Below are positions 1-28,931 of a DNA stretch of 64,000 nucleotides, one piece after another (position 1 is the stretch's first letter; the number at the start of each line of letters is the position of its first letter). The DNA lies in NCBI GenBank assembly GCA_049322615.1, contig JBMORX010000010.1, positions 25,416-89,415 on the forward strand, read 5' to 3'. Both the position numbers and the translations under genes were made by a program. The notes beneath the pieces are model-generated. The model saw nothing but the letters and a program-made list of their open reading frames with translations, did not search any database and was not told the DNA's origin. This stretch comes from Patescibacteria group bacterium (GTDB lineage Bacteria > Patescibacteriota > Microgenomatia > CAYGWK01).

Positions 1-94
1 CGAAAATAATTTTAAAAACCTTAGCTCAATTCAAAACGCCAAAGGTGGCGATTTGGTTTTTTAAAACTGCCTGGAATTTTTGGAGGTGGACCAA

Positions 95-997
95 ATGAAA
101 GCAAGCGTGATTATTCCCGCTTACAATGCCCAAAAAACCATTAAAGACTTGCTTGCCTCGCTTGTTTCTCAAGATTATCCTCAAAAGGATTATGAGGTAA
201 TTGTCGTTGATGATGGCTCCAAAGATAATTTAAAATTGAAACTGGAAATTAAAAATTTAATTTTTCTGCAACAGAAACATCAGGGAGCGGGAGCGGCACG
301 GAATTTGGGGGCGAAAAAAGCCCAAGGTGAGATTTTGGTTTTTACGGATAGCGATTGTCTGATTCCCAAAGACTGGGTAAAAAATCACTTCAAAAGTCAG
401 GAAAAATATAAAGATTTTGGGATTATTGGTGGGGGAGTCAAAAAACCCAAGGAAGGAACTTATCTGGCTTGGGCTGATTTTCTCTCTTCTTGGTTTAATG
501 CCCATGAAGATTTGCCCAAACAGGAGGTTAAGGAATATCTTCCTAGCTTAAACATAAGTGTTAAAAAGGAGGTGTTTGAAGAACTTGGTGGTTTTTGGGA
601 GAAAAAATTAACTGGCGAAGATGTTGATTTTTGTTTTCGCGGCCGTCAAAGAGGAGTTAAAATTTTATTTGAGCCTGCCTTGGCTGTCTGGCATCAAGCC
701 CCAACTTTTCAGGGTTTCTTAAAACATAACTTCAATTGGGGTTATCACGCCTCATTTGTCCGCGGACAACATCAAGCTTTGAGTTTTCATTGGCTCCTTT
801 CTGGCGGTTTTTTTAAGGCTTTAATTTTATTTTTGCCCCTTGTTTGCGGGTATACTCTCTATTTGCTTATCCGTTGGTGGCGCTATCAACCCCTAAGATT
901 TATTCTCTGTTTGCCTTTAATTTTTTTCGGCAAGACAAGCTATGCTTTAGGTGTCTTGGTTGGTTCTTGGCAGAAATCATTGAAGAAAAATGATTAG
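95..997 (+). CDS. Family 2 glycosyltransferase with hydrophobic C-terminus
   Basis: ORF 80..997. ATG at 95 follows GGAGGTGG (82-89). SVIIPAYN...VIVVDDGS...FTDSD is the GT-A/GT2 pattern. C-terminal hydrophobic stretches. Confidence 0.8.
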   Translation: MKASVIIPAYNAQKTIKDLLASLVSQDYPQKDYEVIVVDDGSKDNLKLKLEIKNLIFLQQKHQGAGAARNLGAKKAQGEILVFTDSDCLIPKDWVKNHFKSQEKYKDFGIIGGGVKKPKEGTYLAWADFLSSWFNAHEDLPKQEVKEYLPSLNISVKKEVFEELGGFWEKKLTGEDVDFCFRGRQRGVKILFEPALAVWHQAPTFQGFLKHNFNWGYHASFVRGQHQALSFHWLLSGGFFKALILFLPLVCGYTLYLLIRWWRYQPLRFILCLPLIFFGKTSYALGVLVGSWQKSLKKND

Positions 998-2072
998 TAA
1001 AGTCTTAAAAACAGCGCTTGTCAGCTCTCTTTTTGGCTGGCAACAACCGAAACATCTTATCTTCCATGTCACCAGTCGTTGTAATGCCCGCTGTGGAATG
1101 TGTTTTGTCTGGAAGAGATTGAACAAAAATAAGGATTTGACTCTTGAGGAAATTGAAAAAATTGCCAAAATCTTACCTGGTCTTATTTTTCTCGATATCT
1201 CCGGTGGCGAACCCTTTTTACGAGATGATTTAACCCAAATTCTGGCTATTTTTGAAAAAGAAAGCCCGGGTGTTTATGTTAATCTTCCCACCAATGGTCT
1301 AATGCCGGAAAGAATCGAAAAAGAAACCCGGAAAATTTTGCGGGAAACAGATCTATCAATTTCTCTTAATCTTTCTTTAGATGGACTGGAAAAGACTCAC
1401 GATGAAATAAGAGGAGTGAAGGGAAATTTTGAGAAGGTTTTGCAAACCTACCGTCGGCTGGCTCAAGTGAAGAAAGAAAATCCCCGCCTTTCTTTAAAAG
1501 TAGCCACCGTTGTCTCTAAACTAAACTTTCATGAGCTTGAGGGTCTGGCTGATTTTGTCAAAAGGGAAATGAAAGAGATTGATTTTCAAACCTTAATCTT
1601 AGTGAGGGGAGAACCAGCGGATAAAAGTTTTACTTTGCCTCCGCTTGAGGAGTTGAAAAAGCAACAATCAACCTTTTTTGAGATTTGGCAAAATTATGGT
1701 TATGGGAAAAATCTTGGTTGGTTTGGCTCAAAAGTGGCTAATTCCTCTCATCGTTTCCTTTTTCATCTTTATCTTAAAACCCTAAAAGAAAAGAAAATGT
1801 CCTTACCTTGTTTAGCCGGCAATGCCCATGTCGTTGTCTTTGCCAACGGAGATTTGTCTTTTTGCGAACTGCGCCAGCCAATCGGCAATTTGAGAAAAGT
1901 TAACTTTAACTTTTGGTCACTCTGGCAAGGAAAAGAGGCTCAAAAGCAACGCCAAGAAATTGCCCAAAACGCTTGTTTTTGTACCCATGGCTGTAACTGG
2001 ACAGATAACATTTTTTTCAGTCTCAAAACCTACCCGTTTCTTGTTCGAGAATTAATCAGAAGTTTTTGCTAA
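990..2072 (+). CDS. Radical SAM protein, SPASM/twitch-like C-terminal Cys cluster
   Basis: CNARCGMC (CxxxCxxC), GGEPFLR, SLDG..HDEIRGVKGNF, C-terminal CFCTHGC. 8-nt overlap with the upstream GT2 gene. Confidence 0.8.
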   Translation: MISKVLKTALVSSLFGWQQPKHLIFHVTSRCNARCGMCFVWKRLNKNKDLTLEEIEKIAKILPGLIFLDISGGEPFLRDDLTQILAIFEKESPGVYVNLPTNGLMPERIEKETRKILRETDLSISLNLSLDGLEKTHDEIRGVKGNFEKVLQTYRRLAQVKKENPRLSLKVATVVSKLNFHELEGLADFVKREMKEIDFQTLILVRGEPADKSFTLPPLEELKKQQSTFFEIWQNYGYGKNLGWFGSKVANSSHRFLFHLYLKTLKEKKMSLPCLAGNAHVVVFANGDLSFCELRQPIGNLRKVNFNFWSLWQGKEAQKQRQEIAQNACFCTHGCNWTDNIFFSLKTYPFLVRELIRSFC

Positions 2073-2084
2073 AATGGTCTAAAA

Positions 2085-4835
2085 ATGAAAAGGATTTTGT
2101 CCATATTGGGACATTTATTGGCTTTAGGAGTGATTCTTTTATTTTGGTTTCCAATTGCCAAATCTTATTATCAGGCGGTACCGACCATTGGGGCTGATTT
2201 TTTACAATTCCCAACCTATGTCGCTTATATTAAAAACCATTTCCAGCTTCCCCCTGCTTCTTGGAAATACATTTGGTACTCTGGTTTTCCTTTAGTTTTC
2301 GATATGGCTTGGCTTCATATGTATTTGACCCTACCCCTGACTTTTTTTCTGAGTGTTGTTAATGCCTCTCGCGCTTATCTGATCTTGACGATGTTTGGAC
2401 AATTGGCTTTTTCTTATCTTTTGCTTTACGAGCTTTGCCGAAGTCGCTTTGTCTCCCTGGCGCTCACCCTCGCTCTTTCCTCCTCAGTTAATTTCTATCA
2501 TGGGCTTTGGGATGGGGGAACAGCCACTTTTTCGGCCACCCGAATGTTTCTTCCCTTAACCTTACTCTGGTTCGTCAAATATTTTAAAAGTAAAAATAAC
2601 AAATTTCTCCTTTTGTCAGGACTGATCATCGGCTTGGCGATCCTTGGCCACCCAGGCTCACTTTTTCTTATCATTCTCGGCCCGGCCGTCTTATTCTTTT
2701 TGTTTTGGCAAGATAAAGAAACTCCCCTTTTGAGCCTTAAGAAAATCTTAGGCACCATTGTTTTTACCTTAATCGGTTTTCTGATTGGCGGAGTCACTCT
2801 CTATCCAATTATCGAGCAGATTTTGACCCATCCTGGCTTTGCCCAATTCGGTCTGACGACTAAAATCCATGAAGATGCTTTAACCGGAATTTACAGCTTC
2901 AGCAATCCTTTTTTACTTTTTTTGTTTTTTCTTTTTAGCTTCTTAGTTTTCTTCAGAGGAAAGATTAGAAGAGTGCCTGAGGCGACTGCCTTTTTGATCC
3001 TTATCCTTTATGTTTTAGGTTCTTGCGTCCTTTATCTTATTGGCCATCATCCTTTATCTCAAGCTTTGGGACCGGGAAGAATTTGGTGGATTTTCTCTTT
3101 GGCTCTCGCGGGGGCAATTGCTCTTTTTTGGCAGGCTCTTTTTCCAAGTCGGGAGGGAAAATGGTGGGCGAAAAAAAATTTGCTTTCTTTTTTAAGCCTC
3201 TTGCTTTTTGTGCCTATTTTTGCTTCATTTTATCTTCCTAGCTTCAAAGAAAGACTAGATAAGATTACCGCTGAACATATGGGTTATCCTTCTAATGTTC
3301 AATTAGCAGTTATTAACGAAGACAGACAAGCAATCGAAAAAGCCATTGTTCCTTCATGGTTGAACACTCAATTAATTGATTACCGCTATTATGAAATCAG
3401 TCCCGGAGTAGAAACTTGGTGGAATTCAGTTTTTCCCCTACCCTTGGTTAAGGGTTATTATGGAATTTTTGGGGTCAAAGCGACTGACTGGCTTTATTGG
3501 GTTGATAATACGCTTTTGGGCGAGTATGTTTGGCATTTTGGCGTCCCTGAGGCGATTGCCAAAAAGCATGCTCTTTTTCTTATTGACTGGTATGCTATTC
3601 GCTATTTTGAGGGAGGAGGTTTGGCCTTGGCTGAGTATCTTGAGCAAGATCCAGGAGTGGTGGAAACCAAAACAGAAGTTAATATTGAAGCCAGTGAACC
3701 CCTCAAGCCCTATAAATTTTTTGATGAGATCACCTCGCCCATTATTCGCCCAACCAACTCACCAACGATTCTTATGGTGGGCGACACGGTCGCCTACGAT
3801 ACCTTCTTAAAGGTGTTGGCCACAGAAAACTTAAACTCGCGCTATCTTATTCCTCTTCATGGGCCGGAATATCTCGAGGATCTTTCTTCCTGGGACTTGG
3901 CAGATTTTGATGTTATTTTTCTTTACAGCTACAAATACCGTAACGAAAAAGATTTCCGTTCCCGACCTAATAGGGTTTGGGAAAAGCTTGAGGAGTATGT
4001 CCGAGCGGGGGGAAGGCTTCTGATTGAAACCGGGGAGGAGGTTATGGAATCTGATTCAAGCGCTCTTTCTTCTCGGGGTCAAGACATTCTTCCTGACGTT
4101 TTTCCGATAGAGAGAACCTTAAGAGGAGCCCTAGGAGAAAGTTGGGATTTGACCGTGACCGAGAGCCCAATTGTTGAGGGGATAGAATTTGGAAAATTTT
4201 CTCAACTTTTGTATGAAGGCTCTCCTTGGAAACTTTCTTATGCCTCAAATAGTGTTCGCCCCTGGGCGAAAACGATTTTATCTCAAGGAGGAAAGCCAAT
4301 TTTAGTTGAGGGCAAATTAGGGGAAGGGAAGGTTATCTGGAGCGGGATTAATCTTCCTTACCATTTTTTATATTATCTTAATCTAGAAGAGGGAGAATTA
4401 TTCAAAAATATTTTAGGAGAGATGGTTAGTTTAGGAAGGGAGGAAGATATTAAAACTGCTCGGGTTTGGCGAATCTCTCCGGAGAAAATTGAGGTTTCTG
4501 GAGAAAATTTTTCCGGGATAGTCTTTAAAGAGCAGGCCTATCCCGGCTGGCAAGGCAATCTTTTGGAGCCCCAAAACAAAAAACTTAAAGTTTATCGGGC
4601 TGGTCCCTATTTTATGTATTTTAAAATTCCCGAAGAGACAAAGGGAAAGATTAAAGCCAGTCTCACCTATAAAGGAGCCCCTTTGGGATGGTTATTATTT
4701 ATTATCAGCATGGAGACCATCATCTTTGTTTTCCTCGGTTTTATTTTTGAAAAAAGTCTTTCAAGGTTTATCTTAATCTTGAGCAGTAAGGTTGGAAGAA
4801 GGCTAAATACTTGGTGGGGGAAGGAGGAGGAATGA
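2085..4835 (+). CDS. Large polytopic membrane protein (GT-C-like N-terminal half, soluble C-terminal half), function unknown
   Basis: 916-aa ORF. About the first 400 aa are repeated hydrophobic segments, then a long soluble region and one C-terminal TM. Operon context with GT2 and radical SAM genes. Confidence 0.6.
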   Translation: MKRILSILGHLLALGVILLFWFPIAKSYYQAVPTIGADFLQFPTYVAYIKNHFQLPPASWKYIWYSGFPLVFDMAWLHMYLTLPLTFFLSVVNASRAYLILTMFGQLAFSYLLLYELCRSRFVSLALTLALSSSVNFYHGLWDGGTATFSATRMFLPLTLLWFVKYFKSKNNKFLLLSGLIIGLAILGHPGSLFLIILGPAVLFFLFWQDKETPLLSLKKILGTIVFTLIGFLIGGVTLYPIIEQILTHPGFAQFGLTTKIHEDALTGIYSFSNPFLLFLFFLFSFLVFFRGKIRRVPEATAFLILILYVLGSCVLYLIGHHPLSQALGPGRIWWIFSLALAGAIALFWQALFPSREGKWWAKKNLLSFLSLLLFVPIFASFYLPSFKERLDKITAEHMGYPSNVQLAVINEDRQAIEKAIVPSWLNTQLIDYRYYEISPGVETWWNSVFPLPLVKGYYGIFGVKATDWLYWVDNTLLGEYVWHFGVPEAIAKKHALFLIDWYAIRYFEGGGLALAEYLEQDPGVVETKTEVNIEASEPLKPYKFFDEITSPIIRPTNSPTILMVGDTVAYDTFLKVLATENLNSRYLIPLHGPEYLEDLSSWDLADFDVIFLYSYKYRNEKDFRSRPNRVWEKLEEYVRAGGRLLIETGEEVMESDSSALSSRGQDILPDVFPIERTLRGALGESWDLTVTESPIVEGIEFGKFSQLLYEGSPWKLSYASNSVRPWAKTILSQGGKPILVEGKLGEGKVIWSGINLPYHFLYYLNLEEGELFKNILGEMVSLGREEDIKTARVWRISPEKIEVSGENFSGIVFKEQAYPGWQGNLLEPQNKKLKVYRAGPYFMYFKIPEETKGKIKASLTYKGAPLGWLLFIISMETIIFVFLGFIFEKSLSRFILILSSKVGRRLNTWWGKEEE

Positions 4836-5713
4836 TCAGCTGCAGCCTCGGGGTCATGGCTTACAATGAGGAAAAAAATATTGCCCGGGCCTTAGAGGCT
4901 CTTCTTTCCCAAAAACTGAAGAAAGTGAAAATAAAAGAAATCTATATCATTGCCTCAGGCTGCACTGACAGGACAATTCCGATCACTAAAAGAATCGCCA
5001 AAACCGACAAACGGATTAAACTCTTGATTCAAAAAAAACGGGAAGGAAAGTCGTCGGCCGTTAATCTATTTTTAAAGCACGCTCGGAGCAAAATTGTCGT
5101 TTTGGTCGGGGCGGATACGCTCCCTCAAGAGGATGTCGTCGAGAAATTAGTGACCCCTTTTTTAGATCCCCAGATAGGGATGACCGGGGCTCACCCCATT
5201 CCGGTTGATCCGGATAATACCTTTTTCGGTTTTGCGGCCCATCTTTTATGGGAACTGCATCATCAAGTTTCTTTAAGCTCACCTAAAATGGGGGAGATGG
5301 TGGCTTATCGGAAAGTTTTTGAGAGAATCCCTTATGCTTCGGTAGTCGATGAAGCCACGGTTGAACCCCTAATTGTGGGTCAAGGGTATAAACTTCTTTA
5401 TGTTCCTTCGGCGATTGTTTTTAACAAAGGAACAGAGAATTTAAGGGAATTTCTAAAACAACGCCGGAGAATTCATACCGGACATCTAGCTTTAATTAAA
5501 GTCCAAGGCTATAGCGTTTCTACCTTGAGCAAAAGGCGGCTGTTTTTGGCTTGGCTTAAAAGTTTTAGGTTTGAGCCAAGATTTATTTTTTGGTCACCAT
5601 TAGTGGCTTTTTTGGAGATTGTCGCCCGGCTCTTGGGGACTTATGATTTCTATTTTAAAAAAGATAAGCACACAATTTGGGAAGTCGCTTACTCAACTAA
5701 AAGATTGAAATGA
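4832..5713 (+). CDS. Family 2 glycosyltransferase
   Basis: ATG 4832 after GGAGGAGG, ATGA overlap with the previous stop. GVMAYNEEKNI..., GADT (DxD-like), GT2-like layout. Confidence 0.75.
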   Translation: MISCSLGVMAYNEEKNIARALEALLSQKLKKVKIKEIYIIASGCTDRTIPITKRIAKTDKRIKLLIQKKREGKSSAVNLFLKHARSKIVVLVGADTLPQEDVVEKLVTPFLDPQIGMTGAHPIPVDPDNTFFGFAAHLLWELHHQVSLSSPKMGEMVAYRKVFERIPYASVVDEATVEPLIVGQGYKLLYVPSAIVFNKGTENLREFLKQRRRIHTGHLALIKVQGYSVSTLSKRRLFLAWLKSFRFEPRFIFWSPLVAFLEIVARLLGTYDFYFKKDKHTIWEVAYSTKRLK

Positions 5714-6783
5714 GGCGAATACTTTTTAAAATTCCATTTTTCTGGTTTTTTTATTCTTTTGGCTGGCCCAAGGTTTTGCCGGCCAACTATACATTCAGTC
5801 TGACTTTTAAATGCAATTCTCGCTGTCTAACCTGCAATATTTGGCAAAAGAGTGAAGAGGGGGAATTAACCCAGGCAGAATGGCAGAAAATCTTTTTGGC
5901 TTTGGGTAAATCGCCTTACTGGGTAACTCTTTCTGGAGGGGAGCCATTTTTAAGAAAAGATTTAATTGAAATTGTTAAAAATCTTTGCCAAATTTGTCAG
6001 CCAAAAATAATTACTATCCCCACCAATGGAATTTCAACTGCTAAAATCCAAAAAGATGTTCAGGCAATTTTAAAAGGTTGCCCCAAGACGCGTTTAATTA
6101 TCAACCTTTCTCTAGATGGAATCGGGGAAAAACATGATCAAATAAGGGGGGTTAAAGGTAATTTTGATAAAGCAATGGCAACTTATAAAAAACTGAAAAG
6201 GATAAAATCAAGAAATTTTGTCTTAGGAATTCATACCGTTATTTCAAGAGAGAATGTTAAAGACTTTTCTGAAATCTGCGATTTTGTTTTGGACCAACTT
6301 AAGCCTGATTCATATGTGACAGAAATCGCTGAACAAAGGGTTGAACTTGAGACAATGGGTAAAGATATTACTCCTAGTCTTGAAAATTATCAAAGGGCAG
6401 TAGATTATTTAGAGCAGAAGATGAGAAGGCAAAAATTAAAGGGCTTTTTCAAATTAACTCAAGCCTTTAGATTTACTTATTATGATTTAGTTAAAAAAAT
6501 CATGGAAAAAAAAGCCCAAGTTATTCCTTGCTATGCTGGGATACTTTCTTGCCAGATAGCCTCCAATGGCGATGTTTGGCAGTGTTGTGTTCGCGCCGAT
6601 GTTTTAGGCAATTTAAAAAAAGAAAATTTTGATTTTTCAAAGATTTGGTTTTCAAAAAAAGCTGATAAAATAAGAAAATCAATCAAAAATAGAGAGTGTT
6701 ACTGCCCATTGGCTAATGCTTCCTATACTAATGTTTTAATGAGCCCAACCTCAATGACTAAAGTTATCTTTAATTTTTTTTAA
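5710..6783 (+). CDS. Radical SAM protein (paralog of 990..2072)
   Basis: CNSRCLTC, SGGEPFLRKDL, PTNG, SLDGIGEKHDQIRGVKGNF, C-terminal CYCP. ATGA overlap with the upstream gene. Confidence 0.8.
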   Translation: MRRILFKIPFFWFFYSFGWPKVLPANYTFSLTFKCNSRCLTCNIWQKSEEGELTQAEWQKIFLALGKSPYWVTLSGGEPFLRKDLIEIVKNLCQICQPKIITIPTNGISTAKIQKDVQAILKGCPKTRLIINLSLDGIGEKHDQIRGVKGNFDKAMATYKKLKRIKSRNFVLGIHTVISRENVKDFSEICDFVLDQLKPDSYVTEIAEQRVELETMGKDITPSLENYQRAVDYLEQKMRRQKLKGFFKLTQAFRFTYYDLVKKIMEKKAQVIPCYAGILSCQIASNGDVWQCCVRADVLGNLKKENFDFSKIWFSKKADKIRKSIKNRECYCPLANASYTNVLMSPTSMTKVIFNFF

Positions 6784-7706
6784 TGAATGTCTTAATTACC
6801 GGCGGGACAGGCTTTATTGGTAAGCATCTAGTTGATGCTTTAGTCAAAAAAGGGCACCTGGTGAAGGTTATTGCCAGAAATCCCCAAAAAGCAGAGCCAG
6901 TGAAAAAGTTGGGGGTTAGGGTTGTGATTGGCGATTTAGGAAATAAAGAGTTTTTGAAAAAAGAGCTTGAGGGAATTGAAATTGTTTATCATTTAGCGGC
7001 TATTCCAGGCCAAGCCTGGGGCATTCCTTGGGAGGAATATAAAAAGGTGAATGTTGATTTTACCAAGAATTTGCTTAAAGCAGCCGTTCAAAATAAAATT
7101 GAAAAATTTATCTTCTGCAGTTCGGTTCAAGCTGTTGATCCCTCGACTTTTTATGGCAAATCAAAACTTGAGGCAGAAAAAGAAGTTAAAAAAAGCAATT
7201 TGGAATACGTTATTGTCAGGCCTGGCGTAGTTTATGGACCAGGTGATAAGCAGGCAATTTTGCGGATTTGTCAGCTAGTTAAGAAGGGATTTTTCCCTTT
7301 GATTGGCGGAGGGAAGACAAAATTAGCGATTATTTTTATTGATGATTTAATTGATCTTTTTTTGCAATGTCTTACTTCGAAGGTAAAAAATAAAACAATT
7401 TGGGGAATTGGTGAAGAGATTACTTATAAAAACTTAGTCAAAATAATAGGCAAGGAGTTGGGCAAGCCCTGTTGGCAGGTTTTTTTACCGGCGCCATTGG
7501 TAAAAACAGTCGCTTTTCCTTTGGAGGCGATTTCCTCAATCACTGGGATTCGACCTTTGGTTACCCGAGCCCAGGTTGATTTTGTTACTTTTGGTTGGTA
7601 TTTTGCTGTTCCCAAGGAACAAAAACGAATTTGGCAGCCGAAGGCAAAGTTTGCCGAAGAAATTAAAAAAACAATTGAGTGGTATAAAGAAAATGGCTAT
7701 CTATAA
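6783..7706 (+). CDS. NAD-dependent epimerase/dehydratase (SDR family)
   Basis: VLITGGTGFIGKHL Rossmann motif, YGKSK (YxxxK). TAATG start/stop overlap. Confidence 0.85.
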   Translation: MNVLITGGTGFIGKHLVDALVKKGHLVKVIARNPQKAEPVKKLGVRVVIGDLGNKEFLKKELEGIEIVYHLAAIPGQAWGIPWEEYKKVNVDFTKNLLKAAVQNKIEKFIFCSSVQAVDPSTFYGKSKLEAEKEVKKSNLEYVIVRPGVVYGPGDKQAILRICQLVKKGFFPLIGGGKTKLAIIFIDDLIDLFLQCLTSKVKNKTIWGIGEEITYKNLVKIIGKELGKPCWQVFLPAPLVKTVAFPLEAISSITGIRPLVTRAQVDFVTFGWYFAVPKEQKRIWQPKAKFAEEIKKTIEWYKENGYL

Positions 7707-8091
7707 AAAACTCCCGCTTTGGCAAAAATACAAACCCAAAATTTATGGTTTAGGAGAGGTTTATGAGCAGATTTCCGTAGAAAGAAAGAAAAAGAGATTA
7801 AAGGAAAAATTTGGGTCAGGAATTTTGTTTCTTTGTCCAAATAAAAAGCATTCTGGTAGGGGGTTAGCCCTAGAAGAACTGCAAGAAAAAGTCCGCCAGC
7901 AAAAATATCTAATTTTAACCAGTGGCTTTGTTGATTCACCACCGTGGCGATCTTCTCCTGGCAAAAGAAAAGGCTTGAAATTACCCCTTTTCTTGGCGAA
8001 AATAATTTTTTATGGCTTGAGTTTCTTGGAGTCTTTTTGGGAAGGAGAAGAAAATTCTCATATAGTTTATGTTTTAGGCAGAAAAAAGTAA
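7693..8091 (+). CDS. Hypothetical basic protein
   Basis: ORF 7576..8091 trimmed to the ATG at 7693 so it does not overlap the epimerase C-terminus. No recognisable motif. Confidence 0.4.
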   Translation: MAIYKKLPLWQKYKPKIYGLGEVYEQISVERKKKRLKEKFGSGILFLCPNKKHSGRGLALEELQEKVRQQKYLILTSGFVDSPPWRSSPGKRKGLKLPLFLAKIIFYGLSFLESFWEGEENSHIVYVLGRKK

Positions 8092-8092
8092 G

Positions 8093-9467
8093 ATGAAAGT
8101 TTTATTGCTTCACCCCCAACTGAAAAAATATAAACAGCCCCGTCTTCCGCCTTTGGGACTTTTGTCAATTGCCGCCGTTTTGGAGAAAGAAGGACATCAG
8201 GTTTTTGTTTTGGATTTGAATGTTGAGCCTAATAACTTAGAAAGGTTTCTCAGAAAGAGATTTGATTTAGTTGGGATTACCGCAACCACTCCTTTAATCA
8301 AAGAAGCCTGGCGACTGACTAAGATTTGTAAGAGAAGAAAGTTGCCCGTAATTTTGGGCGGACCCCACCCTTCGGCTTTACCTGAAGAATCTTTAAAAAA
8401 GGGAATAGTTGATATTGTTGTTCGTCACGAGGGTGAGGAGACAATGAAAGAACTTTGTGCCAAATGGCCAAAATACCAAAAAATTGCGGGAATTTCTTAT
8501 ATTAAAAATGGGAAAGTTGTCCATAATCCTAATCGCCCCCTAATTCAAAACCTGGATAGTCTTCCTTTCCCTGCCCATCATCTTTTAGGCGATATTAGTC
8601 GCTATAGTCCCCCTCAACCTGTTTTAACTAAACAGAAAAAAACTTTGACCTTGATTTCTTCCCGCGGTTGTCCTTATCATTGTAATTACTGCTACAAGGG
8701 TGTTTTTGGCGATCGCTGGCGAGCCCACAGCCCGGAATATATTTTAAATCTTTGGGAATATTTGGTTAAGGAATTTGGGGTCGAAGAAATCGGAGTGGAA
8801 GACGATACTTTTAATCTAGACCCAAAAAGAGTCGAGGCAATTTGTGCTGGTTTGGGCAAAAGAAAAAATTAAAACTTCCTGGACCACCGCCCAGGGATTA
8901 AGGGCGGATAGAATCACCAAAGGCCTTTTAGTGAAAATGAAAAAAACTGGTTTTTATCGAACAGGCTTTGGGATTGAATCAGGCAGCCAAGAAATGGTTG
9001 ACAAAATCGGCAAAAATTTGAATTTAGCCAAGGTCCCCGAAGTCATTTCTTTCTGTAGAAACCTGGGGATAGAATCTATTGGTTATTTTATGATCGGTAA
9101 CGCTGGCGAAAACAAAAGGACGATGGAGGAAACGATTGATTACGCCATTAAGCTTGACCCAGATATTGCTCATTTTACTATTGCCACCCCCTTACCTGGT
9201 AGCCCCCTTTATGACCAGGTAAAAAAAGAAGGAAAACTGCTGATTACTGATTGGGATCTTTATGGTTATACCCAAGGCAGGTGTTATTTTGAGATGGGTG
9301 AGGTAAAAAAGGAGCTGGTGGAGAGGATGTGGCGAAAGGCTTATCGCCAATTCTACTTACGTCCTGCAGTGATTAAACGATTTTTAACCAGAAAAGAGAC
9401 GTGGCTTAACCTCCCCAAAATGGTTCAAGCTAGTCTTTCTTATCTGGGTATACGAAAGGAAACTTAA
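8093..9467 (+). pseudogene. B12-binding-type radical SAM gene split by a +1 frameshift
   Basis: ORFs 8093..8872 (B12-like N-domain, GGPHPS, CPYHCNYC) and 8844..9467 (GIESGSQEM onward) together are colinear with the intact paralogs at 9467 and 10944. Frames switch in gggcaaaagaaaaaatt (8854-8870). Confidence 0.7.
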
Positions 9468-10939
9468 TGGCGGATATCGTTTTAGTTCAACCAGTGGTGG
9501 GTCTTTTAGATAATATTAAGACGGCTCCTGGTTTGCCCCTCTCCCTTCTTTCGGCAGCTAAGTTGGTATCCAAGGAATTTAAGGTTAAGATTATTGACCA
9601 AAGGCTGGATTTTGCCTGGAGAGAAACCCTGAAAAAAGAATTGAAAAAGAAGCCTTTGTTGGTGGGGACAACGGCGATGCTTGGGCCGCAGGTTGAATTT
9701 GCCAGGATGGTTGGGGAGGAGGCAAAAAAGATAAATCCAGAAATCCCGGTAGTTTGGGGCGGACCCCATCCCTCTGTTTTGCCTGAGCAAACTCTTCAAG
9801 ATGAAACAGTGGATATCATTGTTGAGGGCGATGGGGAAGAGACGTTTTTAAAGCTGGCTCGGGGTTTGAAAAAAAAGAAATCTTTAAAAGCAATTCCTGG
9901 TCTTTATTTCAAAAAAGGAAACAAGGTGATTTACACCCGGCAGGCACCCCTAGTTGATTTAAATAAAATGCCGGATATTCCCTATGAGTTAGTTGATGTT
10001 TATCAATACTTGCCAAGAAGGGGAAAAGTGACGGCTTTGGATATGGAAACTTCTCGGGGTTGTCCTTATCGGTGTCGTTTTTGTTACAATCCCTTTTTTA
10101 ATCGCGGTCGCTGGCGGGCTTTAAAAGCGGAAATAGTTTTGGCAAGGATAAGGAAAATTGTTGAGAAATACAAAATTAAGGGGATTTGGTTTATTGATGA
10201 TGAATTTTTTATTGATCTTAAAAGAGCCAGAGAGATCATTGAGGGGTTGATAGAATTAAATCTTCACTGGACAATTCAGGGTGTAACTGCCAATTCGGTG
10301 CTAAGGATGGATGATAGTTTTTTGTCTTTGTTGGAGAAATCGGGTTGTGAACAATTAAATATTGGGGCTGAGTCAGGATCATTGCGGATTTTAAAAATGG
10401 TGGAAAAAGGCATTACTCCTCAAGATATTTTAAGGGTTAATCGCAAGCTTAAGCCCTACAAAATTATGCCCTGGTTTTATTTTATGATTGGCTTCCCTCA
10501 AGAAACGAAAACAGATGTTCACAAAACAATTAACCTCGTTCTTCGCTTACTTAAAGAAAACCCCAGGGCGAAAGTTTCCGGGATTGGCTGTTTTACTCCC
10601 TATCCGGGGACATCTCTTTTTGAGGAAGCGAAAAAAGAGGGTTTTGTGCCCCCCAAAGATCTTCTTGGTTGGCGGACTTTTTCGGTTGACCAAATTAATG
10701 TCCCTTGGTTAAAAGGGGAGAAAAAAGCAATGGTAGAAGCGGTTCAGTTCGCCTCCTTTTTTGTTGACGAAAAAGCCCGCGATGTGGCTTCTTCACTTTT
10801 GGTCAGACTGATTGCCGAGCTTTATCGACCCATCGCTCATTGGCGCCTAAAACGGAAGTTTTGGGGTTTACCTTTTGATGTTATGATTGGCAACCGGATT
10901 AAAAAAGAATTGGCTAAAAGGAGGATTTCCGTTTTTTAA
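9467..10939 (+). CDS. B12-binding domain radical SAM protein
   Basis: 490 aa. GGPHPS, CPYRCRFC, GAESGS. TAATG overlap with the upstream gene. Confidence 0.8.
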   Translation: MADIVLVQPVVGLLDNIKTAPGLPLSLLSAAKLVSKEFKVKIIDQRLDFAWRETLKKELKKKPLLVGTTAMLGPQVEFARMVGEEAKKINPEIPVVWGGPHPSVLPEQTLQDETVDIIVEGDGEETFLKLARGLKKKKSLKAIPGLYFKKGNKVIYTRQAPLVDLNKMPDIPYELVDVYQYLPRRGKVTALDMETSRGCPYRCRFCYNPFFNRGRWRALKAEIVLARIRKIVEKYKIKGIWFIDDEFFIDLKRAREIIEGLIELNLHWTIQGVTANSVLRMDDSFLSLLEKSGCEQLNIGAESGSLRILKMVEKGITPQDILRVNRKLKPYKIMPWFYFMIGFPQETKTDVHKTINLVLRLLKENPRAKVSGIGCFTPYPGTSLFEEAKKEGFVPPKDLLGWRTFSVDQINVPWLKGEKKAMVEAVQFASFFVDEKARDVASSLLVRLIAELYRPIAHWRLKRKFWGLPFDVMIGNRIKKELAKRRISVF

Positions 10940-10943
10940 AAAA

Positions 10944-12353
10944 ATGAAGTTCCTTTTTATTCAGAAAAGCGCTTTTCCTTTAGCTGGAGTGATGAGTCTT
11001 GGGGCGGTCATCAAAAAAACCGGCTGGCAAGTGGATCTAGTTTTAGCGGGAGAAGAGGATATTTTAAAAAAGGTTTGGGAGTTTCAGCCCCAGGTAGTGG
11101 CTTTTCCTGTTTTTACCGGTGAACATCAGTGGGTCCTTCGGCAGGCGCGGGTTTTAAAGAAAAAACATCCTCGTATTTTTATTCTTCTTGGTGGTTCCCA
11201 TCCCACTTATTATCCTGACATCGTTAAAGAAAAAGGAGTTGATGGCATTATTAGGGGAGAAGCCGAAGGAGCAGTTTTGGACTTATTGAAAGCTTTAGAA
11301 CAAAAAAAATCCTTAACTAAAATCAAGAATCTTTGGTTGAAGAAAGGAAAAAGGATTCATAAAAATCCCTTGCGTCCCCTGATTGAGGATTTGGATAGTT
11401 TGCCTGTTCCCTTAAGAGGAATTTATTATCAATATAATTTTTTAAAAAATGCCTCGGTCAAACAATTTTTAACCGGCAGGGGATGTCCTTATAATTGCAC
11501 TTTTTGCTCTAACCATCTTTTGCGCCAGATGTATCAGGGTAAGGGTAAATATCTTCGCCGACATTCTCCTTTAAGGGTTATTCAGGAGATAAAAGAAGTT
11601 TGGGAAAAATATGGCTTTAAGACAATTTCTTTTACTGACGATGTTTTTACTGTTGATAAAAATTGGTTAAAAGAATTTTTGCCTCTTTACCGAAAGAAGA
11701 TTGGGGTGCCTTTTATGGTGAATGTCACTGCCAACTCGTTGGATGAAGAATTAGCCAAGATGCTTAAAAAGGCTGGTTGTTACGGAATTGCCATGGGAAT
11801 TGAATCAGGAAGCCAAGAAATGAGGTTTAAAGTCCTTAAGAAATTTATCACCGATAAACAGATTTTTGAAGGAGGAAGATTGGCAAAAAAATACAATTTA
11901 GTTCTTAAGACCTACAATATTTTATCCTTGCCTGGCGAGACACTTCAAGATGCCATTAAGACGATTAAAATCAATGCTGCCCTTAAACCCTTATCAGCCA
12001 CGGCTTCCCTTCTTCAACCGTATCCAGATTACGAAATTACCCGCTACGCGGCCAGAAAAGGCTTTTTAGCGAAAAATTTTGGGATCGATGATGTCTTCGA
12101 AAGTATTTATCTGGCTTCCCCAATTAAGGGGAAAGAATCCCAAGAAATTGAAAACCTTCAGGCTTTTTTCCCTTTTTTGGTGGCCCATCCCAAATTTATT
12201 CCCCTCGTCAAACCATTGCTCAGGTTGCCATTCCGCTGGCTTTTTAGATTAGTGGCCAGAATTACTTACGGATTTTATATGAGCCGCGTCCATCGACTTT
12301 CTTTGCTAGATAAGATTCGATTCCTCCATCATATAGACCCTTTGAAGGTTTGA
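10944..12353 (+). CDS. B12-binding domain radical SAM protein
   Basis: ORF 10887..12353 trimmed to the ATG at 10944 (MKFLFIQK). GGSHPT, CPYNCTFC, GIESGSQEM. Confidence 0.8.
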   Translation: MKFLFIQKSAFPLAGVMSLGAVIKKTGWQVDLVLAGEEDILKKVWEFQPQVVAFPVFTGEHQWVLRQARVLKKKHPRIFILLGGSHPTYYPDIVKEKGVDGIIRGEAEGAVLDLLKALEQKKSLTKIKNLWLKKGKRIHKNPLRPLIEDLDSLPVPLRGIYYQYNFLKNASVKQFLTGRGCPYNCTFCSNHLLRQMYQGKGKYLRRHSPLRVIQEIKEVWEKYGFKTISFTDDVFTVDKNWLKEFLPLYRKKIGVPFMVNVTANSLDEELAKMLKKAGCYGIAMGIESGSQEMRFKVLKKFITDKQIFEGGRLAKKYNLVLKTYNILSLPGETLQDAIKTIKINAALKPLSATASLLQPYPDYEITRYAARKGFLAKNFGIDDVFESIYLASPIKGKESQEIENLQAFFPFLVAHPKFIPLVKPLLRLPFRWLFRLVARITYGFYMSRVHRLSLLDKIRFLHHIDPLKV

Positions 12354-12504
12354 AGACCTTGACCCGCCTAATCTTCCCTTGCGACTTTTCAGTTCTATTC
12401 GAACACGCCGCAAGGAGCGATTTATGTCGGGTCGGCGCCCCGCACCGAACTTTGTTCTGGTGCGGGGCTTGACTTTTCGATTTTTGGGATATAGGATAAA
12501 AGTA

Positions 12505-12753
12505 ATGAAGAAAAGATTGACTCCAGGGCAAATAGACCGCTGTTTTGGTGTTATCTTGGCGATTTTTTTGGCGTTTGCCGGATTTTTGTATTGGCAAGGC
12601 TATATCCAAGGGAGTGGTTTTTTACTTACGGCAATTGTTGTTTTATTAGCCGGAGCTTTCTGTGTTTTTAATACTCGAAGAGCCCAGAAAGATGGATTTT
12701 TAAATGGCTACGCTCGGGCAAAGGATGATTTTGAGAAAAAGAAAAAGGGTTAA
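12505..12753 (+). CDS. Small two-TM membrane protein
   Basis: ATG 12505 downstream of TTGACT-17-TAGGAT (about 12468-12496). Two hydrophobic helices. Confidence 0.45.
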   Translation: MKKRLTPGQIDRCFGVILAIFLAFAGFLYWQGYIQGSGFLLTAIVVLLAGAFCVFNTRRAQKDGFLNGYARAKDDFEKKKKG

Positions 12754-13085
12754 ATTTCTTCTAAAAGTTTTTCCGAAATATCCTTTCGACAGTGACCGCA
12801 GATAACCTCTTTTTCGTCTCCTTTAGCATAAGTTGGCTTTTCGCAAACATTACATTTAACAGATTTGTAGGGTGGGGGAACGACTAAACTTCTGGCAACT
12901 TCATCAAGAGTCAAAATCGTAAAGACAACCCCCAAGGGAATAATTATTAAGCCAAAAAACAAACTCCAGCCAGGAATTTTAGCAAGGAGAATGAGAATGC
13001 CGCCAAAGAAAAGACCTAAAGACAAGACAACCATTAAAACCTGTTTTGAGACAAGAGTCACCAGTTGGGAATTCTTAAACATCAC
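12750..13085 (-). CDS. Membrane protein with C-terminal zinc-ribbon (CxxC...CxxC)
   Basis: 111 aa. Two TM segments, then CNVCEKP...CGHC. Confidence 0.5.
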   Translation of the reverse strand: MMFKNSQLVTLVSKQVLMVVLSLGLFFGGILILLAKIPGWSLFFGLIIIPLGVVFTILTLDEVARSLVVPPPYKSVKCNVCEKPTYAKGDEKEVICGHCRKDISEKLLEEI

Positions 13086-13088
13086 TTA

Positions 13089-13182
13089 ATCATAGCAAGT
13101 GAAAAAGAAATTGTGAATGGTCAATTTTGAGTAGCATCATAGCAAGTGAAAAAGAAATTGTGAATGGTCAATTTTGAGTAGC
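13089..13182. repeat. Perfect 47-bp tandem duplication
   Basis: atcatagcaagtgaaaaagaaattgtgaatggtcaattttgagtagc occurs at 13089-13135 and again at 13136-13182. Confidence 0.95.
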
Positions 13183-13975
13183 CTCGCAAGGCGATTCCTT
13201 GCGAGGCTAAAGGTCGTAATCGATTAAGGCAGTTTTGATTAAAGAAAAATCTTCTGTTTGTTTAACAAATGCTAGATAGTCTAATCGGGGATTCTTTTTA
13301 GAAAAATAAGAGAGTATTTCTTCTGGATGAACCCAGCTTGCTTGTCTTTGTCCTAAATATTCTGGCAACGAAGACGGTTGAGAAGTCCACCCACGAAAGG
13401 CATTGCCTTTTGAGGCTAATTCTTCAGGGTTGCGGTGAATATAACTAGTTAAATAAAGGAGTTGCTCTTCGGATTCAGCCATAACCGCTTTATATTGCGA
13501 TTGATACAGATGTCCAACGCGTTTATATTTTTTATTAAAAAACATGGTATATCTTGTCCCTAAAGAGTTCATAAATCTATCAATTGCATCTTTCGACTTT
13601 TGTTTTAAGAGAAAATGAAAATGGTTGGGCATTAAACAATAAGCGAGGAGAATTATTTCCCTCGAGAAGTTATTCAATCGCAAAAGTTTCAAAGCTTTGT
13701 CTTTCTCTTTGTAACTTGTTGATGGGCTAGAGAGTATTTCTCTAAGTTGCTTCTCGTTTTTGGGGAGGAGATATGTTTTAAGATATGAAAGAAAAACGGC
13801 ATAATCTTGTTCGTCAGAAAATATTTGGCGTTTTTCCACTCCCCGGTTATAAATATGATAGTAGCCATTTTCGATATATACTTTAAGAGCATTTTTAGCA
13901 GGCATAATTGCAGTCTTACACAAACGAAAGTATTTGTCAAGTTCACAAGGAGTTGCCTTGCGAGGCTAAAAGATC
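13183..13975 (-). mobile_element. IS200/IS605-family or RayT-like unit (Y1 transposase gene with similar subterminal hairpins)
   Basis: 15-nt direct repeat ccttgcgaggctaaa at 13197-13211 and 13956-13970. Each is the 3' arm of a small hairpin (gcctcgcaagg/ccttgcgaggc; caagg/ccttg), and they flank the transposase ORF. Confidence 0.55.
13207..13923 (-). CDS. Y1 (HUH) transposase, IS200-like/REP-associated type
   Basis: YHIYNRG, PNHFHFLL (HUH motif), YIHRNP (catalytic Tyr region). Confidence 0.75.
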   Translation of the reverse strand: MCKTAIMPAKNALKVYIENGYYHIYNRGVEKRQIFSDEQDYAVFLSYLKTYLLPKNEKQLREILSSPSTSYKEKDKALKLLRLNNFSREIILLAYCLMPNHFHFLLKQKSKDAIDRFMNSLGTRYTMFFNKKYKRVGHLYQSQYKAVMAESEEQLLYLTSYIHRNPEELASKGNAFRGWTSQPSSLPEYLGQRQASWVHPEEILSYFSKKNPRLDYLAFVKQTEDFSLIKTALIDYDL

Positions 13976-14603: not shown

Positions 14604-14701
14604 TTTAGCACAAAAATTTGCTATAATTAACACGGTTTTGGCCCCACCACGTCGGACGTGGTAGGGAGCCGCGTTTGACGCGGGAACGTCAGACGTTCCG
14701 C

Positions 14702-14774
14702 GGCCCCATCGTCTAGTGGTTTAGGACATGAGGTTTTCAGCCTTAAAACCAGGGTTCGAATCCCTGTGGGGTCA
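14702..14774 (+). tRNA. tRNA-Glu(UUC)
   Basis: Hand-folded cloverleaf: GGCCCCA/TGGGGTC acceptor, anticodon loop TTTTCAG, T-arm CAGGG-TTCGAAT-CCCTG. No encoded CCA. Confidence 0.85.
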
Positions 14775-16473
14775 CAGACAAGGATTTTGAGGTTTTAAAA
14801 TCGCTTTTTAGGGCGAAAAGACGGGCTAATTTAGGTGTTCGATTAACTAAATCATCATAAGTTGGCAACTCTTCGAAAAGTAACCCAAACATAGCTGCGT
14901 TTCTAAGGGGTTCGGAGCTTGAGAACAATAATTCTTCGGGGTGTTCGATGTAATATTTCAGGTATCCTAAGACTACCTGGACATCCACTTGTTGCTTTTC
15001 CTTTCGATCACGGATAAGAGTCGCTTGGGCTTTTTCTTGCTCCAAGTTGTCAATATCATCTTCTAAAAGCTTGATGGCTGCCACAGAAGTTAAGACTTTA
15101 ATCTTTTCTTTTAGGTTCTGAATTTCTTGTTCAATTTGGGTGACTCTTTGACCAAAGTTTATTGTATCATCAGATAAATTCTTCTCCCGCTTCTCCCACT
15201 CCTCCAAAACGATTTGCCTGAACCGAATAAAATACTCCTCACTAAACTTAACATCTTCTACGAAGGATTTAATTGTTTTATGAAACTCTGCAACTGGAAT
15301 CCCGATATATTTATGGTTCCTCCCACAGTTGCCGCAGTGATAATAACCATGACGTTCTCCGTTCTTGCTTCTGGAGAAAGAGGCTAAGAGAGACTTTCGA
15401 CAGATGGGACATAAAACATAGTGACGGTAAGGAAATAGGGGATTTTCCTTTAACTTCTTTTGCCCCCAAGGCGATTTTTGGTTTCTTAGAAGAGATACGG
15501 TTCCATCGGGATTTTCTACGATAACAATCTTGCCTCGGTTAGCTTTGTTAAACATGTCTATTGTAACTAAACCATCGAACCGTTCCTTAATTGGTTTACC
15601 TTCTGTCCAAAACTCATCGTTAATTCCAGCGTAGATGGGATTCTGAATATATCGTTGAAATTGTTTCACTGTTAATTTATTGCCACCGCCAAAACCTATT
15701 ATTTTCTTTTTATCGTTGGGGTCATGTCTTTTAAACTTTCTTGATCTAAAACCCATGTCGTTTATTTCCTTTACAATCTCTTTATCATCCAAATTTCCCT
15801 GAATCCTTAGCTCATACATGCGAATAAACCAAGGCGCTTCGGTAGGATCGCCTTCAAGAATTACTCTCATCCCACGCTCGGTTTCTATTTTTTGGTTGCG
15901 AAATCCCATCGGTGCCTGCCTAACATGGTATCCCATGCGAACATATCGAATTTCTGCCCCGATTAGTCTTGTCAAAATCGTTCTGACCTCCTCACGTGCC
16001 CGCTCTGCATCAAGAAGTTCAGTAATCCAGGTAGGGGAAAACTCTGACCAGTCGTATCGGACGTTTAGGTGTGCCAGGGTATTTATTTTTTGGGTGCCGA
16101 TAATTCCCATAACGTCTACAAGCTGGATTCCTAATTTTGAAAGTTGTGTTTTAAGAAGACCGTAGATGGTCGAACCACCTCTGGTAAATCTATCTATGCT
16201 TTTAGTGAAGAAGAACCTGATTTTGTTCGCGGGGTTTTTACAGTATTCTATAGCTTTTAAGACAGGTTGCGTGTCCAACTCGCCTGAAGCTGACTCAGTA
16301 AATTCGAATATCTTCCTAATTTCTATTCGGCAGTTAAGAAGTGTTCCTAATTGTTCTGCTCGAATTTTTATTTGTTCAAGCTGCTCTTCTGGAGAGTCAC
16401 CCGTCATCTCCTGCTTAAGAGAGCTTACCCGAATATCCGCAACCGCGTATTGAATTTCCCGCTCATCCTTCAT
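14743..16473 (-). CDS. Large serine recombinase (integrase)
   Basis: N-terminal YAVADIRVSSLKQ (catalytic Ser), recombinase domain, zinc ribbon CPICRK...CGNCG, coiled coil. The last 32 nt overlap the tRNA-Glu 3' end on the opposite strand. Confidence 0.85.
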   Translation of the reverse strand: MKDEREIQYAVADIRVSSLKQEMTGDSPEEQLEQIKIRAEQLGTLLNCRIEIRKIFEFTESASGELDTQPVLKAIEYCKNPANKIRFFFTKSIDRFTRGGSTIYGLLKTQLSKLGIQLVDVMGIIGTQKINTLAHLNVRYDWSEFSPTWITELLDAERAREEVRTILTRLIGAEIRYVRMGYHVRQAPMGFRNQKIETERGMRVILEGDPTEAPWFIRMYELRIQGNLDDKEIVKEINDMGFRSRKFKRHDPNDKKKIIGFGGGNKLTVKQFQRYIQNPIYAGINDEFWTEGKPIKERFDGLVTIDMFNKANRGKIVIVENPDGTVSLLRNQKSPWGQKKLKENPLFPYRHYVLCPICRKSLLASFSRSKNGERHGYYHCGNCGRNHKYIGIPVAEFHKTIKSFVEDVKFSEEYFIRFRQIVLEEWEKREKNLSDDTINFGQRVTQIEQEIQNLKEKIKVLTSVAAIKLLEDDIDNLEQEKAQATLIRDRKEKQQVDVQVVLGYLKYYIEHPEELLFSSSEPLRNAAMFGLLFEELPTYDDLVNRTPKLARLFALKSDFKTSKSLSVTPQGFEPWF

Positions 16474-19544: not shown

Positions 19545-19603
19545 AATTCACCCTTATATCGGATATTATACCGTTTATTGCCCAAAACAGTTAAAATATA
19601 AGT

Positions 19604-28722: not shown

Positions 28723-28751
28723 TTGCCAAAAATCAAGTTTTTTAGTAAAAT
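28723..28751 (+). promoter_or_regulatory. Promoter TTGCCA-17-TAAAAT for the tRNA-Ile unit
   Basis: TTGCCA 28723-28728, 17-nt spacer, TAAAAT 28746-28751. The predicted start is just upstream of 28764. Confidence 0.5.
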
Positions 28752-28763
28752 ATTTTTAAGATT

Positions 28764-28805
28764 GGGCGATTAGCTCAGTTGGTTAGAGCAGCCCGCCAAA
28801 ATTTT
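28764..28805 (+). other. tRNA 5'-half-like leader (acceptor, D-arm, anticodon-stem strand) without a matching 3' half
   Basis: GGGCGATTAGCTCAGTTGGTTAGAGCAGCCCGCCAAAATTTT. Shares TAGAGCAGCCCGCCAAAA with the scaffold at 31291. Confidence 0.6.
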
Positions 28806-28877: not shown

Positions 28878-28931
28878 CAGTTTTGAAGAAGAAGGCGAAT
28901 CGGGAAGGGCGCTCCGCTCCAAATTAGCCTC

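Follow-up and report, generated by a model that had tools for sequence, protein, structure and literature searches.

What does a member of the Patescibacteria do with five radical S-adenosylmethionine (radical-SAM) enzymes encoded side by side with glycosyltransferases? The question is raised by a 64,000-nt stretch of contig JBMORX010000010.1 (assembly GCA_049322615.1, forward strand, positions 25,416 to 89,415), hereafter the window, whose positions serve as coordinates throughout; labels such as L010 or P0285 denote retrieved loci and proteins, respectively. A single plus-strand operon of 11 genes occupies positions 95-12353 of the window. We found that its core, a family-2 glycosyltransferase (GT2) gene followed by a radical-SAM gene, is a widespread and strongly conserved two-gene module. 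The combination as a whole is not peculiar to the Patescibacteria genome studied here: it is a recurrent cassette, and the GT2-radical-SAM core extends far beyond the candidate phyla radiation (CPR). As for function, we lean, if only slightly, towards glycosylation of the cell envelope by a membrane-associated system whose radical-SAM enzymes tailor the sugar to be transferred.

The features of the operon are listed below in 5' to 3' order.

37-58, plus strand: terminator-like hairpin CGCCAAAGGTGGCG with a T-run, marking the 5' boundary of the operon
95-997, plus strand: GT2a, family-2 glycosyltransferase (PF00535, 101 bits) with two C-terminal hydrophobic helices
990-2072, plus strand: SPASMa, radical-SAM enzyme with CNARCGMC and a C-terminal Cys-rich twitch/SPASM-like domain (PF04055, 75 bits)
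2085-4835, plus strand: 916-aa glycosyltransferase of predicted GT-C fold, matching no Pfam or NCBIfam family
4832-5713, plus strand: GT2b, family-2 glycosyltransferase and partner of SPASMb (PF00535, 82 bits), joined to the stop codon of the GT-C gene by an ATGA overlap
5710-6783, plus strand: SPASMb, radical-SAM enzyme with CNSRCLTC from a large conserved unnamed family (PF04055; SPASM, 27.5 bits)
6783-7706, plus strand: extended short-chain dehydrogenase/reductase (SDR) of the NAD-dependent epimerase/dehydratase family (PF01370, 111 bits; GGTGFIG and YGKSK motifs)
7693-8091, plus strand: orf132, small conserved 132-aa protein in a conserved position, matching no Pfam or NCBIfam family
8093-9467, plus strand: B12_1, B12-binding and radical-SAM protein with CPYHCNYC, carrying a +1 frameshift (split open reading frames, ORFs, 8093-8872 and 8844-9467)
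8861-8866, plus strand: A6 homopolymer, the frameshift site (A5 in the L010 orthologue)
9467-10939, plus strand: B12_2, B12-binding and radical-SAM protein with CPYRCRFC (PF02310, 59.8 bits; PF04055, 82 bits)
10944-12353, plus strand: B12_3, B12-binding and radical-SAM protein with CPYNCTFC (PF02310, 55.8 bits; PF04055, 82 bits)

The 5' end of the operon could be placed inside the window, since the hairpin and its T-run are followed by GGAGGT at 82-87 and an ATG at 95. This ATG is the probable start of GT2a, whose frame is open from a TTG at 80; likewise, GT2b, open from 4811, likely starts at the ATG at 4832. In the case of B12_3, whose frame is open from 10887, residue 25 of the long ORF is where alignments with orthologues start, and the ATG at 10944 is the probable start codon. 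Inspection of the junctions found no inter-gene gap longer than 30 nt. An original prediction, made from the sequence alone, had argued for one operon from start/stop overlaps, and these are all in place (ATGA at 4832 and 5710, TAATG at 6783 and 9467), while GT2a and SPASMa share positions 990-997; with genes overlapping or abutting throughout and a hairpin with a T-run just upstream of the first, that argument stands. The five CxxxCxxC motifs named there also recur, each inside a Pfam Radical_SAM (PF04055) match above the gathering score: CNARCGMC at 990-2072, CNSRCLTC at 5710-6783, CPYHCNYC at 8093-8872, CPYRCRFC at 9467-10939 and CPYNCTFC at 10887-12353. Intact genes score 68-82 bits against this family; with the cut-off at 29.5, the halves of B12_1 reach 32.4 and 28.9 bits. 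Pfam domain matches bear out both GT2s and the SDR, which had been called an epimerase.

The module formed by GT2b and SPASMb is the part of the operon with the broadest distribution. Homologues of SPASMb number more than 6,452, with about 50-58% identity, and they cross phyla and domains, occurring in many anaerobic bacteria and archaea. The 120 best-matching ones (52-78% identical) stem from sources that include Patescibacteria, Cloacimonadota, Nitrospirota and DPANN archaea. When one genome per species was scanned, at least 572 carriers emerged, among them Chloroflexota, Calditrichota (Caldithrix abyssi), Actinomycetota, Omnitrophota, Methanomassiliicoccales and Methanomicrobiales. The viral-contig scan for this family gave just two distant matches (31% identity), and there is therefore no sign of a phage-borne copy. 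The family alignment holds 63 invariant residues, five of which are C-terminal cysteines (C274, C292, C293, C330 and C332). A full SPASM domain has seven cysteines and two clusters; the five invariant ones therefore suggest that a single auxiliary cluster, of the twitch-like kind, would fit SPASMb better than two. The AlphaFold2 model of SPASMb (pLDDT 92.5) retrieved SkfB, SuiB, BlsE, MoaA, DesII and BtrN in Foldseek at query-normalised TM-scores of 0.44-0.65, none of them close.

In 59 of the loci L010-L089, 80 in all, tblastn placed a GT2b orthologue (40-76% identity) beside the radical-SAM gene, in nearly every case immediately upstream; five further loci (L001, L007-L009 and L091) show the same neighbor. 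Across the 80 species genomes retrieved, this adjacency spans Cloacimonadota, Chloroflexota, Actinomycetota, Omnitrophota, DPANN archaea and methanogens. A match to the SDR, obtained by tblastn with the window proteins, lies within 10 kb of the radical-SAM gene in 23 of the 80. Louvain clustering of neighboring ORFs, read after setting aside the housekeeping synteny specific to Cloacimonadota (ribH, nusB), ranked GT2b first and the SDR second among the partners that recur across lineages. In Chloroflexota, GT-C genes of GT87-like, PMT_2/TMEM260-like or YfhO-like type come after the radical-SAM gene. In Cloacimonadota, the GT2-radical-SAM pair is near-universal, single-copy and placed beside the housekeeping genes ribH and nusB, as in L020 and L021 at ~11.0-13.9 kb, where the order is ribH, nusB, GT2, radical SAM, BamB-like beta-propeller, DUF4159, metallophosphoesterase and cyclophilin. 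The free-standing DUF4159 protein two genes 3' of the pair has the same fold that is fused to the GT-C enzyme of the window.

Around this core, the order GT2b-SPASMb-SDR-orf132-B12_1-B12_2-B12_3 recurs in at least 10 other contigs, among them L010, L019, L091, L093, L094, L095, L096, L097 and L101, with rearranged or more divergent versions in L100 and L102; the contigs bearing the cassette are mostly CPR-like. The SDR itself is syntenic in L010, L019, L091 and L093-L096. The GT-C gene of related loci stands either 5' of the cassette or between orf132 and B12_1. Some loci carry additional genes: two B12-type radical-SAM, two other radical-SAM and two methyltransferase genes in L010, a fourth B12-type radical-SAM gene in L019, and, in L091, a GT2 resembling DPM1/PpgS, another large membrane protein and a flippase of the GtrA family. 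The closest syntenic contigs bear unexpected labels, L010 (CAZPUR010000011.1) being assigned to a 'Pseudomonadales' metagenome-assembled genome (MAG) and L091 (WVZI01000087.1) to an 'Aenigmarchaeota' MAG. The L091 contig encodes the bacterial ribosomal protein bL25. Either these contigs were mis-binned or the cassette was horizontally transferred.

The cassette also brings to light orf132. The inventory of the original prediction was right in the genes that it listed, although it overlooked this 132-aa gene and the frameshift in the first B12-type gene. Orthologues of orf132 with 40-58% identity hold the same position in the syntenic loci, and the NCBI accession numbering over the operon is consistent with its annotation as a gene. 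We also considered positions 7707-8092 as non-coding DNA or as a precursor peptide and rejected both, a conserved 132-aa gene being present there. Its family has few members, 51 cluster representatives matching at E<=1e-3 and 27 at E<=1e-10. Two fusions of the domain were found: in P0285 (454 aa) it is attached to a GT2 at the latter's C-terminus, and in P0298 (359 aa) it is joined to a DUF2284 'predicted metal-binding' domain.

The 916-aa protein had been described as polytopic, and structure prediction, the check suggested at the time, places it among the GT-C folds. Its AlphaFold model, built on the alignment of its homologues (pLDDT 75.7, pTM 0.74), has a GT-C transmembrane fold: an N-terminal polytopic domain (residues ~1-400) is followed by extracytoplasmic GATase1/DUF4159-like and beta-sandwich domains and by a C-terminal transmembrane anchor. 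The soluble part (residues ~470-860) resembles GATase1/ThuA/DUF4159 folds as well as the non-catalytic domains of the glycoside hydrolase families GH42 and GH164. In GT-C enzymes, the catalytic acid is located in the first extracytoplasmic loop. Here, the aspartate of a GxD motif (D39) directly after the first transmembrane helix is conserved in all eight homologues that cover the site, and we infer a catalytic role for it. The protein is rare, with only 9 homologues among the 5.8 billion proteins searched. It gave no Pfam match to YfhO, PTPS_related or PMT_2 itself, and weak matches were obtained for its homologues (PTPS_related in five of the nine, YfhO and PMT_2 in one each). The closest homologue (56% identity) belongs to a similar cluster with GT2, radical-SAM/SPASM and B12-type radical-SAM genes, and those at ~30% identity are found in ordinary GT2/GT4/methyltransferase/PMT_2 glycan loci. 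When the exact protein was looked up to obtain sequence upstream of the window, no record came back.

The operon opens with a second GT2-radical-SAM pair. GT2a, with hydrophobic segments at residues 232-250 and 269-287, and GT2b have no mutual match at E 1e-3. SPASMa and SPASMb had been described as ~360-aa paralogs with extra C-terminal cysteines, and indeed they share 34% identity and match the C-terminal SPASM domain (PF13186) at 21.4 and 27.5 bits, respectively, against a cut-off of 21.5. SPASMa is the divergent paralogue: of the 63 positions that never vary in the SPASMb family it retains only 39, and the PDSYxTEIAExRxEL signature is gone. It probably plays a different role. The nearest solved relatives of both proteins are SkfB, SuiB and PqqE, and the sequence relatives of SPASMa in the PDB also include BlsE.

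The last three genes of the operon, B12_1 to B12_3, combine the radical-SAM core with an N-terminal B12-binding domain. This domain had been proposed from short motifs, and PF02310 recognizes it in all three at 76.7, 59.8 and 55.8 bits against a cut-off of 32.1. They have the architecture of class B radical-SAM enzymes, with putative cobalamin binding. The proposal that they are tandem paralogs is right as to paralogy; they are not recent copies. With a mutual identity of 28-30%, and with each gene having its own orthologue, 54-80% identical and in the same order, in other contigs, they are therefore ancient paralogues, and a recent tandem duplication is ruled out. Orthologues of B12_2 (57-80% identity) are directly followed by the B12_3 orthologue in every locus with enough flank. 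Matches in the PDB to OxsB, TokK, TsrM and CysS are weak; AprD4, a close PDB match, has been reported to work without B12.

If these enzymes use cobalamin, the three of them raise the question of where the organism obtains it. No cobalamin riboswitch was found in the window. In L091, positions 14607-15957 hold, beside the cassette, the GtrA-family flippase gene and a DUF4430/DUF6580 gene pair. DUF4430 being a transcobalamin-like domain, the two genes might serve cobalamin uptake beside the three B12-type enzymes. No homologue of the GtrA, DUF4430 or DUF6580 proteins of L091 was found in the window, where other cobalamin transporters were not searched for.

B12_1 is interrupted as sequenced. 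Dropping any single base of 8851-8870 rebuilds a 457-aa protein, and comparison with L010 locates the lesion in the A6 run at 8861-8866. Intact orthologues are abundant (453-463 aa), and none of the orthologues is broken; the NCBI annotation keeps a 259-aa N-terminal product only. We rejected an error confined to one assembly, as the Logan contig L092 (SRR32167786), identical to window positions 5772-9774 (100% over 4,003 nt), repeats the frameshift; both assemblies may share the same reads. The frameshift may mark a pseudogene, a switch prone to slippage or a systematic error of sequencing.

Does any described pathway account for this set of genes? No component of the operon reached the cut-off of a curated NCBIfam family, be it of the Hpn, BchE, Mft, Nir/Ahb or Tes type or among the RiPP (ribosome-made peptide modified after translation) maturases ApyD, ScmE, WgkB, SkfB and PqqE. 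The top matches were MftF for GT2a (130 bits versus 280), HpnA for the SDR (143 versus 368), HpnJ for B12_1, far below the cut-off, HpnJ for B12_2 (148 versus 578, the best HpnJ score) and BchE for B12_3 (138 versus 481); further scores were also below threshold (HpnH 51 versus 225, HpnI ~19 versus 310, MftC 59 versus 265, ApyD 132 versus 750, ScmE 80 versus 400). Sequence searches of the PDB with six components gave weak, superfamily-level matches only. The literature searched on GT2/radical-SAM/GT-C systems, SPASM pathways and CPR bacteria with cobalamin yielded no paper describing the gene set. Because no component attains a curated cut-off and no such paper was found, we agree with the original prediction that this is not a characterized pathway.

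Two published frameworks come near, and neither holds the gene combination of the operon. The first comprises multi-component glycosylation systems built from a GT2, a flippase and a GT-C enzyme, sometimes with an auxiliary epimerase (PMC11127046, PMC8035078). Those that we compared were GtrB/GtrA/GtrC, CsbB/GtcA/YfhO, ArnC/ArnD/ArnEF/ArnT, the PPPRS/MATE/GT136 pentofuranose system with its epimerase, and DprE1/E2 with Emb/Aft. As in these systems, the membrane-associated GT2s of the operon adjoin a GT-C-fold enzyme with an extracytoplasmic accessory domain, the SDR is placed where auxiliary epimerases sit (PMC11127046, PMC8035078), and L091 adds a GtrA flippase and a DPM1/PpgS-like GT2. Unlike them, the operon has five radical-SAM enzymes, of which the listed systems have none and for which no parallel among such systems was found in the literature searched. 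It also has no flippase gene, GT2b is not demonstrably a polyprenyl-phosphate transferase, and the 916-aa protein matches no Pfam family of GT-C enzymes, while some of its homologues do. The second framework, in which radical-SAM enzymes rework a lipid-linked hexose after glycosyl transfer, is taken up below.

We incline, by a modest degree, to envelope glycosylation with a radically tailored sugar; the resemblance to the first framework is one reason, and others are the operon structure, the GT-C assignment, the pairing of GT2b with SPASMb, the recurrence of the cassette and the orf132-GT2 fusion in P0285. The operon has two membrane-associated GT2s, each translationally coupled to a twitch/SPASM-type radical-SAM enzyme. 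The notion of a radical modification of a glycan or lipid, already present in the original prediction, we infer from the recurrent linkage of the GT2-radical-SAM pair to GT-C genes, beside which it often sits, from the SDR and from the GtrA flippase of one related locus. The scenario might run as follows. GT2b would place a sugar on a membrane lipid, most likely polyprenyl phosphate. SPASMb would then abstract a hydrogen from the sugar, leading to oxidation, epimerization, deoxygenation or ring rearrangement, with the SDR completing the redox step, and the three class B enzymes would add C-methyl groups or rearrange the sugar further. The product would be flipped across the membrane and transferred by the GT-C enzyme to a cell-surface acceptor, while GT2a and SPASMa would supply a second, different modified sugar.

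Several observations weigh against such a scenario. None of the components has a known substrate, donor or acceptor, and neither the operon nor the ORFs next to it encode a dedicated flippase of the GtrA, MATE or Wzx type. That GT2b is of the DPM1, GtrB or ArnC type is not clear: a minimal membrane mannosyltransferase (6yv7) is its best relative in the PDB, and its NCBIfam matches are generic. Cobalamin use by B12_1-B12_3 is putative, and B12_1 is inactivated as sequenced. The fold neighbors of SPASMb mix peptide enzymes (SkfB, SuiB) with sugar enzymes (BlsE, DesII, BtrN), so that its fold is not diagnostic of substrate class. Finally, the Cloacimonadota pair has no GT-C gene nearby.

This last observation fits better with the second framework, in which the GT2 would glycosylate a membrane lipid, possibly one scavenged from a host, and the radical-SAM enzymes would convert the sugar into a carbocyclic (cyclitol- or calditol-like) or C-methylated head group resistant to acid or hydrolases, much as HpnI/HpnK/HpnJ act on hopanoids and Cds acts in Sulfolobus. 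Glycosyl transfer followed by radical-SAM reworking of a lipid-linked hexose, including ring contraction, has published precedent in HpnI/K/J and Cds (PMC13459092), and the parts list of HpnA/B/H/I/J and Cds (GT2, SDR, MoaA/PqqE-type radical SAM and radical SAM with a B12 domain) is that of our operon. The NCBIfam matches echo the same set, HpnA being best for the SDR and HpnJ best for B12_1 and B12_2 and second for B12_3, with weak matches of SPASMb to HpnH, of GT2a to HpnB and HpnI, and of GT2b to HpnI. In [Eubacterium] cellulosolvens, locus L090 joins a GT2, a B12_1-like radical-SAM gene (44% identity), a SPASMb-like radical-SAM gene and a polysaccharide deacetylase, and, as the Cloacimonadota pair illustrates, the GT2-radical-SAM unit can stand without a GT-C. 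Nevertheless, we consider head-group remodeling, although it is the main rival, unlikely. All Hpn scores are far under their cut-offs, with the HpnA and HpnJ models reaching a quarter to a third of the required score, and the operon has three B12-type paralogues instead of one. The 64-kb window contains no squalene-hopene cyclase, no lipid-synthesis gene and none of the hopanoid or tetraether core genes. Moreover, both the operon and related loci contain an embedded GT-C gene, of which there is none among the hpn and cds genes that we considered; the large external domain of the enzyme points to transfer onto an extracytoplasmic acceptor, and L091 has a GtrA flippase.

A diffusible glycosylated small molecule of the aminoglycoside, nucleoside or cyclitol type, with its sugar tailored by radical-SAM enzymes akin to GenK, AprD4, BtrN, DesII or BlsE, strikes us as quite improbable. 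The locus is abundant in radical-SAM, GT and SDR genes, and its enzymes share with BtrN, DesII, BlsE, AprD4 and the GenK-type class B methylases a radical-SAM core with either a twitch-type auxiliary or an N-terminal B12-type domain. Several of these are among the nearest solved structures or sequences: AprD4 is the best PDB sequence match of B12_3 and the second-best of B12_2, BlsE, DesII and BtrN are near SPASMb in fold, and BlsE matches SPASMa in sequence. However, all of these matches are weak and limited to the common superfamily core, with 12-20% identity in the fold alignments. Genes for an aminotransferase, cyclase, nucleotidyltransferase, exporter or resistance are missing from the operon, which does contain a membrane GT-C enzyme. 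Its context is that of envelope glycosylation and not of an antibiotic cluster; nor does a near-universal single-copy pair beside housekeeping genes, as in Cloacimonadota, resemble a secondary-metabolite cluster.

A RiPP pathway, in which SPASM maturases and B12-type C-methyltransferases would modify a peptide encoded elsewhere and later glycosylated, has SkfB, SuiB and PqqE as the nearest solved relatives of SPASMa and SPASMb in sequence and fold and weak matches of the B12 genes to ApyD and other RiPP C-methyltransferase models in its favor, but is hardly credible given maturase scores 5- to 10-fold under the cut-offs, an operon in which no gap exceeds 30 nt and which leaves no room for a precursor gene or small ORF (the original prediction had likewise found no precursor ORF), syntenic loci without a conserved small ORF, protease or ABC exporter, and conserved partners (GT2, SDR, GT-C) that include no peptide-handling protein.

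Returning to envelope glycosylation, it is tempting to go one step further. We suggest, tentatively and aware that it may well prove wrong, that the GT2-twitch-radical-SAM pair, often with an SDR, is an unrecognized pathway, very widespread among anaerobic bacteria and archaea, for the O2-independent radical modification of a lipid-linked sugar that feeds GT-C enzymes. The CPR cassette would be an extension of it, in which three to five cobalamin-dependent radical-SAM enzymes yield a heavily C-methylated or rearranged surface sugar and the A-run is a possible phase-variable switch. If this is true, the chemistry of the pair could be, for example, an epimerization, as an anaerobic counterpart of DprE1/DprE2, a deoxygenation or a ring contraction.

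Bacteria of the CPR have tiny genomes and a host-attached life, and little is known of their surface chemistry. A conserved cassette of ~12 kb that devotes five radical-SAM enzymes (three of them B12-type) to a GT2/GT-C system hints at a surface sugar or glycolipid of an unusual kind, which could play a part in attachment or help to withstand host and phage enzymes. Beyond the CPR, GT2b-SPASMb belongs among the larger well-conserved radical-SAM families still without an assigned function. The radical-SAM gene is carried by Caldithrix abyssi and Ca. Syntrophosphaera thermopropionivorans, and related genes occur in [Eubacterium] cellulosolvens; with such cultured or enriched carriers, the chemistry is therefore testable.

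Finally, we would like to describe the remainder of the window. Directly after the operon lies a small membrane ORF at 12379-12753 (plus strand, 124 aa, two hydrophobic segments), followed by another at 12750-13085 (minus strand, 111 aa, three hydrophobic segments and a CxxC...CxxC tail). Neither has a family match, and they were not seen at matching positions of the syntenic loci inspected. An IS200-like Y1 transposase gene at 13207-13923 (minus strand) has 26-nt inverted repeats on either side (13179-13204 and 13943-13968), and beside it is a perfect 47-nt tandem duplication (13089-13182) with a promoter-like TTCACA-17-TATGAT in each copy. A 576-aa serine-recombinase-like ORF at 14743-16473 (minus strand), which matches Pfam Recombinase weakly, overlaps tRNA-Glu (14702-14775) in the 3' part of the latter, and the region 14702-16473 looks like the edge of an integrated element; beyond it, a DUF4238 gene and unannotated ORFs occupy 18080-21171.

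Introns and long insertions are usual for the rRNA genes of the CPR, and the rRNA operon of this MAG (22676-36851) is of this kind, in keeping with a CPR origin. The 16S gene spans 2.4 kb and includes a group I intron at 23474-23703, and LAGLIDADG endonuclease ORFs were found at 25522-25974 and 26301-26807. Between 16S and a 23S span of 3.8 kb lies a 6.4-kb spacer carrying tRNA-Ile and tRNA-Ala; after 23S, a partial 5S copy (36634-36686) precedes the full one (36736-36851). Two giant minus-strand ORFs lie towards the end of the window, one of 1,951 aa at 47531-53386 with LamG, DUF2341 and fn3 domains and one of 3,318 aa at 53948-63904 with matches to an intein-splicing domain in three stretches, and between them a small ORF weakly resembles the 23S rRNA intervening-sequence protein.

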